Source: Octopus vulgaris
Taxonomy: Eukaryota
DNA length: 64,000 nt
Direction: 5' to 3'
Assembly (NCBI GenBank): GCA_951406725.2
Contig: OX597834.1
Location: 29,140,001 to 29,204,000 of the forward strand
The translations under genes and the position numbers were made by a program. Of this stretch, positions 28,199-52,543 are shown in pieces; the stretch's first letter is position 1, and every line of letters starts with the position of its first letter. The notes beneath the pieces were generated by a model. The model was not told the origin of the DNA. It was given only the letters and a program-made list of their open reading frames with translations, and searched no databases.

Positions 28199-28390
28199 GG
28201 GAGAGTTTATGAAAAAAACAAAAGACGAAGACAGGTGGTGTACAAAACAAACAGATGTATTAGTATAATGCTCAGGAAAAGAAAAAATATTTTATGTTTC
28301 GAGCCTATGCTCTTCTACAGAAAGGGATACACAAAAAAACAAGGAGAGAAAAAAAATGTGTGTAGTGACTAACGATCTATCATGGCGACT
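28199..28390 (-). mobile_element. ~190-bp (TA)n-embedded element with hammerhead-like motif (family H)
   Basis: Reverse complement of 34609-34800; flanked by (TA)n on both sides. Confidence 0.75.
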
Positions 28391-28699
28391 ATATATATAT
28401 ATATATATATATATAGATAGATATATGTCTATATATATATATATATTGTTATATTTCGGAATGGTATATTGCCAGTTTAGCCAATAAAAACACATGCACT
28501 ATATATTTGGTGTTATTTTGCTTCAGTGTTATTTATTTTTTACATTAATCTTAATATTTAAACGTATATATATATATATATATATATATATATATATATA
28601 TACAATATATATATATATATATATATATATATATATATATATATATATATATATATATATATATATATATATATATATATATATATATATATATAAAAA

Positions 28700-29007
28700 A
28701 TAACAATGAATTTATTACAGTGCTCAGGTGCACCACAACTTGTCAGACAGTGCATATAAAGCACATGCAGTAATGCACAAATGTCTGGAAAGCAAACAAT
28801 GCATGAGTCAGATACATGCTTGTGTGTGTATGGAGGGGAGAAAATCAGGTGTAGTGTTGGCGAATCTCAGAAAGCATGGAAGTTTTGAAGGATGCAGTGC
28901 TCCGACAACTAACAACTGATGCCGGCAGTTTGTTCCATACTTCAGCAACCCTTAGCGTGAAAAAATGTTTCCTAAAGTCATGGGAGCTGTGCTGTTTTCT
29001 GACTTTG
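28700..29007 (-). mobile_element. CR1-clade LINE C-terminus and 3' UTR
   Basis: KVRKQHSSHDFRKHFFTLRVAEVWNKLPASVVSCRSTASFK matches the CR1 ORF2 C-terminal FF..RV...WN.LP motif. Confidence 0.8.
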
Positions 29008-29934
29008 TAAATATATATATATATATATACACACACACACATATATACACACACACACACACACACACACACACACACACACACACACACACACACACAT
29101 ACACACACACACACACACACACACACACACACACACACACACACACACACACACACACACACACACATATATATATATATATATATATGCATATATGTAT
29201 GTATATATATGTATATAATTTATATACACATGTATATATACGTGTGTATTTTGAAATACAAAATCACATATATACTTAAAAAATTCACTTTTACTGATAG
29301 TGTTCCAGTTATATTATTGACTTAATTTCATCATGTTAAAATTTATTGAAAATAAATCTTCTCGATACTTAAGAATACAATATACATACATATATATATA
29401 TATATATATATATATATATATTATATATATATATATATATATATACATATATATATATACACACATATCTACAGAAGTACATACATCCATATAGATATAA
29501 ATATATATTTATATATGTTTGTGTACACACATGTCTATACATATATATACGTACATATACGTGAGGGGCTTCTGTTGATCCACCTGTCATGTTAATGTGT
29601 ATAAAACGTTGAGACATGAACCGTTCTCGTTTTAACCTAACACCTTGAAATATAAGGAATTGATATCTCTCGGTGAAACTGTAGATGCTGAGGGTGATGA
29701 TGATGATGATGATGATGGTGATGCTGTCAGTGTTGTTGTTACTGTTGTTGGTGGTGATGCTGATGATATTGGTGATGCTGGCATTGAGAATGATGTTGAT
29801 GGCAATGATGATGGACAACAGTGACGAGGATGAAGATGACAATGACGGTGATAGTAGTGGTAGTGGTGGTGATGACGTTGACAATGACGATGATGATGAT
29901 GATGATGGTAGAGGTGGCAGTGGCTGTGACAGCA

Positions 29935-30250
29935 GCAGTGGTGATGGGCACAGTGGTGGTAGTGGCAGTGGTGGTAATGGCAGTGGTGGTAATGGTAGTG
30001 GCAGTGGTGGTAGTGGCAGTGGTGGTAGTGGCAGTGGTGGTAGTGGCAGTGGTGGTAGTGGCAGTGGTGGTAGTGGCAGTGGTGCTAGTGGCAGTGGTGA
30101 TGGACACAGTGGTGGTAGTGGCAGTGGTGATGGACACAGTGGTGTTAGTGGCAGTGGTGCTTGTGGCAGTGGTGATGGACACAGTGGTGGTAGTGGCAGT
30201 GGTGGTAGTGGCAGTGGTGGCAGTGGCAGTGGCAGTGACAGTGGTGGCTG
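29935..30250. repeat. 15-bp minisatellite (AGTGGCAGTGGTGGT) with 30-bp variants
   Basis: Direct tandem units; source of the spurious GSGGS ORF. Confidence 0.9.
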
Positions 30251-30876
30251 AAGTGGTGTTGGTGTTGGTGTGGTAAAGACATTGACATTACTGCTGCTGC
30301 TGCTGATGACGATGATGGTAATCATCATCATCATCATCATCATCATCATCATCATCATCATCATCATGACTACATTGACAACAACAAGAACACAGCCTGC
30401 AATGTCTATTATTATCACTTGGTGTTTGTTGTGTTGTTTTTGTAATTTGTATTACAATGCAGCCGTTGATAGGAGTTTGATTTCCATTCAATATTTCTTA
30501 ATAGATATTTATTCTTTGATAAGTGAGCTCCTTCCTTTTTTTTGTTTTTACTACTTTAATTGTTGTTGTCTTTTCTAAAAAGTTGATATAATTTTATATT
30601 GTTTATATATATATATTTATTTATTTATATTTATGTGTGTGTATATACACATATATATACATACATGTATCTATTTACCTATATATGTCTATCAACCTAG
30701 ACACACAGATATATATTTATATGTATGTATATACATATATATGTATATATTTCTATATGCGTACATACTTTTAAGTATATACTCATTCCACCTAGTTTAT
30801 CCTATTAAATTTGTGAGGAATTTTCCCATTTGATTTTTTTTTTGTTTTTGTTATTACATTTTTTTTTTATTGACAG

Positions 30877-30914
30877 AAAATCTTGGAAGTTGATGCAACC
30901 TTGTGACATGTCAG
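30877..30914 (+). other. Candidate 38-nt spliced exon of an unidentified host gene
   Basis: Long T tract then TTGACAG| acceptor and CAG|GTAATT donor; one open frame (KSWKLMQPCDMS). Confidence 0.35.
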
Positions 30915-49445: not shown

Positions 49446-51039
49446 TATGTATGTATGTATCTATCTGTGTGTATGTCTGTCTACCTTTCTACCTACTTAT
49501 CTATCTATCTATCTATCTATCTATCTATCTATCTATCTATCTATCTATATATCTATTTATCTATCTATCTATCTATCTATCTATCTATCTATCTATCTAT
49601 CTATCTATCTCTGTGTGTCTGTCCGTCTCACAGACAGAATGTGGCCGATGCCAGTATTGCGTAACAAGAACCCATGCTGGTGGCATGTAGAAAAGCACCT
49701 TACGTTAGATATCGAGGAGGCAACAAGAAACGACCAAAACCTTTGACAATATGCTGTGCTCGAGAAGAAGACACATCAAGCCAAGTGAAATTGTAGTCAT
49801 AGCAGATACTGGTGTCATGGCAAAAAACATCCATTACATCATTGTTTAAAGTCCATTTTCCATGCTGGCATGGATTGGACAGTTTGATTGAGGTCTGGAG
49901 AGCCAGCGGTTGCACCAGGCTCCAATCTGATCAGGCAATGTTTCTACAGCTGGATGCCCTTCCAAATACCAACCACTCTGAAAGTGTAGTGGGTGGTTTT
50001 TACGTGCCACCGACATGTGAGCCAGTCAGGCAGCCCATATATATATATATATATATATATATATATATATATATATTTATTTATATATAATGATATATGT
50101 GCCTGTATGAATCTATGTGTATGTATATGTTTGTATATATGTGTGGGTCAGCAGAAGTGTGTGTTTATATAAAGATATGAAAGTAAATCCATACAATTGT
50201 TTCATATCCATACACACATACATAGATATATATATCTGCGTGTGTGTGTATATATATATATATATATATATGATATATATATATATATGACATATGTATA
50301 TATGTATGTATGTATGTATACATATATGTATAGATAATATATATATATTCATGCTTGTGTGTACATGTATGGGATATCCTTCGCTAATTAAGCTCCTATT
50401 AATAATTGCCTTCTCTTTCTCTGTGAGTCCCTGCACCAACCAACAATCACTAAAACACACAAATAAATATAGAAAGCAAACTACAACAATGCAAATAAAA
50501 AAACATGAAAACCCGGACTAGTTTGAAAGGCAGCAGTGAGGCTAGAGTTAGAGTTGAATAACAACAACAGCAAAAATATGTGGACATTATCCGACATCTG
50601 TCTATCTCACTCCCAGTGTGTCTGTCTGTGTGTCCAAGTCAGACAGTCCTCACTGAACCATGCAATGCAAGCTAACTGTCTCTATGTTAAAGGAAGTCCA
50701 TTTTCTGCGATAGAAACCCAAGGTGTCAGTGTTGTTTCGTAAAGGTCAACTCTTTTACTGGTTTCTGAGTCTCGACAGGAAAGCTTTGATTTGACCGGAA
50801 TTTGGTCGTGTGTTAAGCCAAGGCATTTTTCCTTTTTTTGATTTATTTCTTGGTATTTTTCTGTCTTTGAGAATGCTGCATGCTTTGTGTGTGTGTGTGT
50901 GTGTGTGTGTGTGCATGTGTGTGTCTGATACATGTCTGTTCTGTGGGTGTATGTGTGTCCATTCCATGTTTAACCATAGGAAAATGCCAGTTTAATGTAA
51001 ACACTATGGCAATGCGCGTGTGTGTGTGTGTGTGTGTGT

Positions 51040-51195
51040 GTTTTTTTTTTCTCTCTGTGTATCTTTCTGTTGAAGAGCGTAGGCTCGAAATGTTAAAGAC
51101 TTGTTTTATTTATATTTCCTGAGCGCCATACTAATACAATTGTTCGTTTGTTTTCCACCTGCCTTCGTCTTTTGTCTATTTTCATAAAGCTTCCC
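51040..51195 (+). mobile_element. Family H element (partial)
   Basis: TCTTT-CTGTTGAA-GAGC-GTAG-GCTC-GAAA-TGTT-AAAGA and downstream similarity to 34700-34800. Confidence 0.7.
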
Positions 51196-51780
51196 GTTAT
51201 ATATATATGTATGTATGTATGTATGTATGTATTAAACGTGTATCCAGATATATCTTTATATACACATGTATGTACAGATAGATATGCATACACATATACA
51301 TATACGTAGAAAATAGATACGTAAAAATATAGTATAAAGTAATATATAAATATATAGGTATATAAAAATATATATATATATATATATATATATATATAGG
51401 AAGCATATAAATAAGTAATATATAATGTAAAAATAAAAGTTCATCGTTTAGAAAATCTTTTAAAAATTACTTTCCAAATAGGGGAAACCTATAGTTAAAA
51501 ACCAGTGTCCAAGCAAAAAAGAAGAAACCATATTTACATTTAAAAAAAAAATATATTTCTTAATCGCTTAAGTATTAACATTAACCGTGATGAACTGTAT
51601 TCACACATTTTCTCGCACTTTCTTATATGCTTGTACAGATGAGTTTTGTTTCATCTTCCGTGATATCATAAAAGTATATTCTATGATTAAATGTTCAAGA
51701 TATGAAATGTTATGTGGATGACCTTACATTTGTTTGTTCTGTAACCTTAGTTTGATATATATAATATATATCTATATATA

Positions 51781-52365
51781 TTTTTTTTGTCTAGTTTCAG
51801 CTCAGAGCTGCGGCCATGCTGATGCACCGCCGTTTTGTGCTACACTGTTATTACGACGACCTTGTCTAATATGTGGCACTTGGTGAAGAATGGAGTTTGA
51901 TACAGCTACTCTCATTTGCACCTCTTGCCGTGAGGTAGGTTCATCTGGGACTCTTGACAGGAAGATGTCCAGCTTTGATTTAAAAACCGCTACATCTACT
52001 TTGTGCAAGTTCCCCAGACTCTTTGGGAGAATATTAAAAAGCTGTGGGCCCTTGAAACCCAGGCTGTTGCAGAAGCTGGTCCTGAAGCGTGATGGCATTG
52101 CTGGGATCTTTGGCACTATGCAGTGTCGTCCCGTTCTAGCATTGGTGTAGCTTACAATGCCAAAATTTGGCACAATTCCTTCCAGGATCTTCCAGACATA
52201 TATCACTGCATACCTCTCCCATCTTCTCTCCAGCAAGTAGAGTCTTAGCTGTTTCAACCTTTCTCAGTAGCTGAGCTGTTGCAAAGAGACGTTCTTCTAT
52301 GTGAATCTTCTCTGGATTGCTTCAAGGTCCGCTGTTAATTTTACTATGGGTGACCATAGCTGTGA
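51781..52365 (-). mobile_element. CR1/Jockey-group LINE ORF2 C-terminus, 3' tail and A-run
   Basis: WSP...LEAIQRRFT...LSY.ERLKQLRLYLLERRWER...LFNILPKSL...FKSKLDIFLSRVPDEP, with in-frame stops upstream. Confidence 0.88.
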
Positions 52366-52370
52366 GTAAT

Positions 52371-52543
52371 CCATGATAGATGACTAGCTACTACACACAT
52401 TTTTTTTCTCTCCTTGTTTCTTTCTGTAGAAGAGCATAGGCTCAAAACATTAAAGACTTTTTCAATTCCCGAGCGTTATACTTAATACATCTGTTTGTTT
52501 TCTACACCACCTGTCTTTGTCTTTTGTTTTTTGTAAATTCTCC
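52371..52543 (+). mobile_element. Family H element
   Basis: Collinear with 34614-34800; ends at a TA tract. Confidence 0.75.

Follow-up and report, generated by a model that had tools for sequence, protein, structure and literature searches.

For endonuclease-bearing Penelope-like elements (PLEs), Craig et al. (2021; PMC8557442) describe pseudo-long terminal repeats (pLTRs), truncated copies in inverted orientation, (TA)n targeting that is tied to a CX2-5CxxC linker, and a hammerhead close to the 3′ end; they also mention a DKG motif. The minimal hammerhead ribozyme (min-HHR) of PLEs has a helix I of 4–5 bp, an unpaired base between A9 and 10.1, a conserved G10.1–C11.1 pair, a palindromic 15.2–16.2 and no loop 3; its helix III forms only in the dimer and its in vitro activity is very low (Cervera and de la Pena 2014; PMC4209133). 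Here we analyze a 64,000-nt stretch of Octopus vulgaris DNA (assembly GCA_951406725.2, contig OX597834.1, positions 29,140,001–29,204,000, forward strand; "the window" below), in which four copies of a ~190-nt repeat, Family H, lie between window positions 28199 and 52543. Family H is probably the 3′-terminal ~190 nt (pLTR) of a Neptune-like PLE that inserts in (TA)n. Its minimal hammerhead has U instead of A at position 6 of the core (U6), and this motif likely cuts weakly or not at all and yet is kept under selection. PLE minimal hammerheads are reportedly also the subject of work by Lunse and colleagues in 2017.

The likeness of Family H to the PLE min-HHR (PMC4209133) extends to its site in the pLTR near the 3′ end, the 4-bp helix I, the unpaired base between A9 and G10.1, the G10.1–C11.1 pair, the missing loop 3, the palindromic 15.2–16.2, A or U at H17, and the occurrence mostly as dispersed single motifs from truncated PLEs. 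It differs in having U6 for the invariant A in every subfamily, a short helix II of 4 bp and a palindrome of no more than ACGU, and its motif is nearly uniform, whereas "extreme variability" is reported for most PLE hammerheads (PMC4209133). With the Neptune clade (Arkhipova 2006, as given in Craig et al. 2021) the parent element shares a C-terminal GIY-YIG endonuclease with C..C..H..H, the CX2-5CxxC linker, insertion at (TA)n, pLTRs and truncated copies in inverted orientation. Canonical hammerheads are stated there to be universal in endonuclease-bearing PLE clades, whereas Family H, whose clade is placed by motifs, has no detectable one. Naiad PLEs, as described by Craig et al. (2021), are similar in (TA)n targeting, in reaching tens of thousands of copies and in succeeding without a canonical hammerhead, but carry their endonuclease at the N terminus and possess a CxC domain, whereas the Family H parent has a C-terminal endonuclease and a nearly complete hammerhead motif.

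Rare core departures occur among natural hammerheads, one of them at position 6 (C6) and of low activity (PMC3088659), and U3–A8 is covariant in the PLEs of Cercyon (PMC4209133). These known variants are isolated or compensated, whereas the A6U of Family H is uncompensated and fixed across a superfamily with ~22,800 matches. No natural U6 hammerhead was found in the literature searched, which stopped short of the supplementary motif tables of Craig et al. (2021) and Cervera and de la Pena (2014). Minimal hammerheads in PLE tails that lie in TA repeats are known; what would be new is an uncompensated A6U fixed in a large superfamily, with the remaining motif apparently under tight constraint.

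Family H copies in the window

Direct reading recovered all four copies of the original prediction, each ending at TA and each with the variant motif. The copies, their motifs and the adjoining repeat are as follows (window positions).

28199..28390, minus strand: copy 1, subfamily A; whole ~192-nt unit, AGTCGCC to CTCTCCC, flanked on each side by (TA)n; relatives elsewhere in the genome are 93–96% identical (read directly)
28289..28324, minus strand: motif of copy 1, CUUU-CUGUAGA-A-GAGC-AUAG-GCUC-GAAA-CA-U-A-AAAU (read directly)
34609..34800, plus strand: copy 2, subfamily A; whole unit, inserted in a SINE-like repeat at its internal (TA)n (SINE, short interspersed element; read directly)
34674..34709, plus strand: motif of copy 2 (read directly; architecture after Cervera and de la Pena 2014)
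about 51042..51197, plus strand: copy 3, subfamily B; 5′-truncated, beginning past a (GT)n run; 3′ end AAGCTTCCCGT, then TA-rich repeat
51063..51098, plus strand: motif of copy 3; CUGUUGA (N7 = U), H17 = U, ACGU decayed to AUGU
52371..52543, plus strand: copy 4; 5′ end a few bases into the unit (CCATGATAG...), 3′ end AAATTCTCCC, then TA-rich repeat
52420..52455, plus strand: motif of copy 4; CUGUAGA core, G12 decayed to A (CpG), H17 = U
34500..34608, plus strand: upstream half of the SINE-like repeat, including the (TA)n into which copy 2 inserted; the same repeat lies beside other loci

All four share the motif CUUU-CUGU(A/U)GA-A-GAGC-RUAG-GCUC-RAAA-(ACGU decayed)-H-AAAG, with U at core position 6 in every copy and A (three copies) or U (one copy) at position 7. 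In copy 2 the core C3 U4 G5 U6 A7 G8 A9 occupies 34678–34684, followed by the bulged A (34685), helix II (34686–34697) and GAAA (34698–34701), and the predicted cut falls between 34705 and 34706. The corresponding predicted cuts lie between 28293 and 28292 in copy 1, between 51094 and 51095 in copy 3 and between 52451 and 52452 in copy 4. Copy 1 has ACAU for ACGU and has lost the final helix I pair; copy 3 belongs to the subfamily of loci L121, L127 and L138. The palindrome reads ACAT or ATGT in all four window copies and is intact (GAAACGTAAAAG) in the less decayed L008 and L013 and in every subfamily consensus, as expected from the earlier suggestion of a CpG-decayed ACGT.

The whole units (copies 1 and 2) start AGTCGCCATGATAG and end AAACTCTCCC, and (TA)n or TA-rich repeat follows directly 3′ of all four copies. 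Copy 2 does lie inside the internal TA tract of a SINE, as first noticed, and copy 1 adjoins the same SINE-like repeat that copy 2 splits. This repeat (head GGCTGTGT..GGTTCAGTCCCA.., internal (TA)n(TG)n) is abundant; it occupies window positions 28100–28198, 34500–34608 and 34801–34900, and its TA tract is a recurrent landing site for PLE tails.

Parent element and insertion anatomy

Reading upstream of the unit, long copies run through a ~0.8 kb C/A/T-rich 3′ untranslated region into endonuclease and then reverse transcriptase coding sequence. The endonuclease region reads ...CSRPRCRTCPYLSN...FTCTSSNIIYCISCSLCQSLYIGQMGRRLADRFAEHL...HF...GH, a C-terminal GIY-YIG with an internal C..C..H..H (CCHH); a shorter reading of the same region is ...CSRPRCRTC...NIIYCISCSLCQSLYIGQMGRRLADRFAEH...HF...GH. 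The CX4CX2C linker CSRPRCRTC precedes the endonuclease in at least 13 of the 19 oriented copies that reach that far. Farther upstream, open reading frames of 679–693 aa contain IKPADKGG, LPKIHKP..PGRPI, GVAMGTRMGP and YIDD; the first two and YIDD we take to be reverse transcriptase motifs specific to PLEs. Pfam RVT_1 scores 31.1 bits (cut-off 29.6) on the open reading frame of L087 and 25.1 bits, below the cut-off, on that of L076. The 3′ untranslated region (L013/L031 tail, about 800 nt upstream) is almost G-free and of low complexity, with CCCACCCACCCC and CACACCACACC runs, and is 84–89% conserved between copies.

The arrangement of copies is also that of a PLE. In L091 the unit directly precedes the PLE 5′ end (TCACGCTCACGTGG...), which is the tandem pLTR arrangement, and in L005 the unit is followed by (TA)4 and then the PLE 5′ end, with an inverted truncated copy adjoining. 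The 5′ truncation points differ widely among copies, TA flanks nearly all copies inspected, and target duplications of 13–15 bp flank L016, L021 and L024. Inverted head-to-head unit pairs, 15–150 bp apart, occur at L005, L027 and L123 (and in the octopus genome itself at C1:1878302/1878453), as PLE insertions are drawn in Craig et al. (2021). Such copies would arise by target-primed reverse transcription. The upstream coding sequence and the L091 and L005 junctions bear out the original identification of a solo pLTR of a Penelope-type element, and of the expected tandem arrays or PLE-bounding copies it is the latter that were found, at these same two loci. The absence of a terminal inverted repeat, noted at the outset, stands; the absence of open reading frames holds for the unit itself, which is the end of a coding element with open reading frames upstream in long copies. 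In L150 and L157 (subfamily B/C) the CCTGCCTTCGTCTTTTGT..ATTTTC block near the 3′ end is internally duplicated.

Two other assignments were set aside. A Helitron or DNA-transposon end does not fit, as there is no terminal inverted repeat and a PLE coding body lies upstream. We use the label Neptune-like, and leave the Hydra clade aside, because CCHH is present in the Family H parent and Hydra elements are described without it (Craig et al. 2021).

Hammerhead architecture and abundance

Family H matches all the listed sequence and structural min-HHR marks: helix I is CUUU/AAAG, the bulged A is present, GAGC pairs with GCUC, and A or U comes after ACGU. In the intact copy L107 and in the five subfamily consensuses there is a base unpaired between 9 and 10.1, a G10.1–C11.1 pair, a palindromic 15.2–16.2, a helix I of 4–5 bp and an H17 other than G. 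The sole departure is in the core CUGANGA, where position 6 is U and the remaining core is intact. The extra A after A9 is a hallmark and not a second defect, because an unpaired base at this place marks PLE minimal hammerheads.

The motif is far more frequent than chance allows. The pattern TTTCTGNNGAAGAGCRTAGGCTCRAAA, a 27-base core, has 22,796 exact genomic matches (11,459 forward and 11,337 reverse), and its reversed control has none on either strand. A minimal-hammerhead descriptor that allows one core mismatch matches L107 and none of 20,000 dinucleotide shuffles of the unit. With copy 2 as query, BLAST against the octopus's own 2.8-Gb genome gave 1,971 first-look candidates, and the 41 scored matches have 93–100% identity.

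RF00163 does detect other hammerheads in the same genome. Other PLE tails carry a canonical minimal hammerhead ~45 nt from their (TA)n-flanked 3′ end, L103 being an example. This other tail family (L100–L105) reads GUAC-CUGAWGA-GACCC..GGGUC-GAAA-CAYGUG-UC-GUAC, with an 8-nt palindrome, and several of its copies have decayed cores in which C3 has become C-C (CCGAAGA). Distinct from these 42-nt minimal hammerheads is a family of 108-nt RF00163 matches (L095, L096 and L099, on C7, C1 and C15), which are type I with a ~65-nt helix II insertion and a GAAACGATCGTTGTAC end. Across window positions 28000–53000, the 150 listed of 248 Rfam matches at E ≤ 10 are nearly all microRNA models on TA/TG/CA simple repeats, and no hammerhead is among those listed, a blank that carries no weight; the dozens of sub-threshold microRNA matches (mir-297, mir-3149, mir-466 and mir-1277) are artefacts of TA/TG/CA microsatellites.

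Position 6 across the genome

Among the first 100 listed of the 22,796 pattern matches, positions 6 and 7 are UA in 26, UU in 36, UG in 16, UC in 16, AU in 3, CU in 2 and CG in 1, which gives U6 in 94 and A6 in 3. Three further samples were blind to the motif, since their copies were chosen solely on the 3′ half of the tail; their 64 scorable cores have U6 in 58, C6 in 4 and A6 in 2, one of these A6 cores being the query locus. The 60 places fetched fall into at least five subfamilies that differ in their flanks and 3′ ends, and U6 is the consensus in all five sampled. Contigs from eight public runs (four organism codes), which are assembled and of uncertain RNA or DNA kind, show no alternative letter at 5% or more for the U6 base. 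A canonical lineage had been suspected from three CUGAUGA copies among the first 60 fetched, and was rejected when a blind sample of that lineage gave a CUGUUGA consensus with CUGCUGA and CUGAUGA as minor variants.

It had been argued from U in all four window copies that this is not random decay. Four copies could reflect shared ancestry only, and that argument falls; the claim that U6 is the state of the family stands because of the genome-wide data.

Conservation of the motif

When the five subfamily consensus tails are aligned, 36 of 40 motif columns are invariant, the varying ones being N7, H17 and two outer bases, whereas the upstream flank is invariant at 19 of its 71 columns and the downstream flank at 47 of its 100 (Fisher p = 1.4e-9 for the motif vs both flanks, 1.2e-6 vs the downstream flank alone). 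The five subfamilies have A, U, C, G and U at N7, and either A or U at H17. The stems are invariant across the five. The run contigs agree independently: within the motif, the places listed as variable are N7, H17, the final base of helix I and three CpG positions, with about half alternative letters at N7 in large runs and, at H17, 20–25% in three of four runs and 4% in X11. With N7 and H17 as the only variable inner positions, the block evolves as a hammerhead would, position 6 excepted. Summed contig depth is highest on the core in all eight runs, and we take this peak to reflect core words common to more copies than flank words and nothing further. As far as the aligned sequences go, no block of the tail is better conserved than the motif, though other blocks are also invariant.

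Several observations weigh against the reading of Family H as a Neptune-like PLE tail with a selected U6 hammerhead. Its parentage draws on an endonuclease call made by direct reading only, Pfam finding no family in the C-terminal 382 aa, and on a Neptune-like assignment that follows motifs rather than a tree and is putative to that extent. The constraint argument includes a subfamily B consensus that was built from motif-selected copies (the other four were not), and the tail blocks CTTCGTCTTTTG and ACTAATACA are likewise invariant, so conservation alone does not single out a ribozyme role. Covariation gives no signal: over 86 copies and 10 pairs, 93.3% are paired vs 93.5% in shuffles, with one double change, which is explained by stems that are invariant between subfamilies. 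The unit RNA shows no gain in folding over shuffles (z = +1.06), and its lowest-energy fold is without the hammerhead; this poor score is uninformative because a dimer-dependent minimal motif is expected to behave so. Rfam at E ≤ 10 reports no hammerhead in L008:1400-1700, in L090:4100-8300 or in six copies, three of them with CUGAUGA, and no canonical one elsewhere in a near-full copy. This blank is due to the architecture and not solely to U6, and it accords with the original prediction of a non-canonical hammerhead that motif searches would miss. 

Does the motif cut?

Self-cleavage of the U6 motif is likely weak or absent. In a full scan of single and double mutants, mutations of the CUGA turn left low activity that second mutations did not rescue (Roberts et al. 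2023; PMC9901934), and the activity of the natural C6 variant, though detectable, is low (Perreault et al. 2011; PMC3088659).

The rival that survives best, though we consider it rather unlikely, is that the U6 motif is a working ribozyme, slow and probably dimeric through its ACGU palindrome, that processes PLE transcripts as proposed for the canonical ones. In its favor, diverged subfamilies have all retained the other core and helix features and vary only at N7 and H17, as under selection for a hammerhead; the canonical PLE minimal hammerheads themselves cut very slowly in vitro (PMC4209133); and the natural C6 variant retained some activity (PMC3088659). Set against this are the weak, unrescued CUGA-turn mutants (Roberts et al. 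2023; PMC9901934), the short helices (4 bp each for helix I and the dimer helix III) and the positions of copy 5′ ends. Only one of 60 copies sampled by their 3′ half (sets A and C) begins at the predicted cut (L169), with no pile-up there, and of 17 copies with a 5′ end in a 12-nt frame around the site, three are at the site and the rest lie between −9 and +4. The other lineage has one copy with its 5′ end near the cut (L220). The pattern of a canonical-hammerhead PLE family was the intended control for this 5′-end test and yielded one unrelated match, so the test has no control. The upstream pLTRs of L091 and L005 also hold an uncut motif.

In the preferred reading, that of a weak or non-cutting motif under selection, the hammerhead fold would serve a step of the PLE cycle without fast cutting: slow or chaperone-aided cutting, RNA pairing by way of the palindromic ACGU, or recognition by the reverse transcriptase. 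It is possible, and we put it forward tentatively, that either the hammerhead fold works in vivo with an uncompensated U6 or the essential role of PLE hammerheads is a non-cutting one, in RNA pairing or reverse transcriptase recognition.

Other explanations

It is very unlikely that the hammerhead likeness is a coincidence and that the block is a conserved protein-binding or priming signal with no hammerhead ancestry. Such a signal would suit the missing Rfam match, the missing covariation and the equally invariant other blocks of the tail. It leaves unexplained a descriptor that matches none of 20,000 shuffles and a motif placed where PLE hammerheads occur, with canonical minimal hammerheads at a like place in other PLE tails of the same genome. 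Nor does it account for hallmarks that were not selected for (the bulged base after A9, G10.1–C11.1, the CG palindrome and H17 not G), or for N7 and H17 being the only variable inner positions.

Still less probable is the original alternative of a retrozyme, a tandem, non-autonomous element that forms circular RNA. The ~190-nt size and the hammerhead-type motif would suit one, and PLE pLTRs have been argued to be the origin of animal retrozymes (Li, Clavereau and Pollet 2026; bioRxiv 10.64898/2026.07.22.740005). Among the first 100 matches listed, however, none stands head-to-tail at unit spacing from another, so the tandem arrays looked for did not appear there; copies lie scattered, have target duplications and share a fixed 3′ end at (TA)n, and the "goes back" joints are few and each is a single contig.

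The tail of a TA-targeting long or short interspersed element (LINE or SINE) can practically be dismissed: 5′ truncation, target duplications and microsatellite targeting are also found in some non-LTR elements, but the GIY-YIG endonuclease and PLE-type reverse transcriptase motifs upstream contradict it, and Rfam at E ≤ 10 gives no tRNA, 5S or 7SL match, in keeping with the earlier remark that no tRNA head is visible.

The ~190-nt length class

Sampling by the 3′ half gave 60 copies, of which 36 have their 5′ end no more than about 30 nt from unit position 1 (12 of them within 3 nt), six reach more than 20 nt upstream and the remainder are shorter. Long copies read TCA|GTC, CTA|GTC or GCA|TTC across position 1. 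The initiator consensus is YYANWY, and the A of the unit is at position 1. Initiator-like TCA(+1)GTC or CA(+1)TTC is seen at the unit's first base in L008:1490-1510, L013, L012 and L114–L117, and at window positions 34609 and 28390. A transcription start inside the pLTR, at unit position 1, is a possible reading of the sequence. Most templates would then be short RNAs running from this initiator-like position to the 3′ end of the same unit, and the solo unit would be a self-contained passenger of PLE enzymes.

A second hot spot of 5′ ends, at position 8–9, follows an AT able to pair with the TA target. Another cluster, at unit positions 34–39 (11 of 60, sets A and C), lies at the start of the T-run TTTTTTTCTCTCC and is either a real stop or an effect of alignment or masking.

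Implications for PLE biology

Endonuclease-bearing PLE clades are described as carrying hammerheads universally, and these have very low activity in vitro (Craig et al. 2021; PMC4209133). Here one of the most abundant PLE tails in a 2.8-Gb genome bears a core change of a kind found to be strongly disabling in mutational scans. One practical consequence is that descriptor and Rfam searches undercount the relatives of PLE hammerheads. The ~190-nt solo unit, for its part, seems to behave as a discrete, passenger-like entity, likely with its own start site. Family H is a natural experiment, in that comparison of U6 with A6 bears on whether retrotransposition needs cutting. If true, a non-cutting role would resolve why PLE hammerheads are universal yet barely active.

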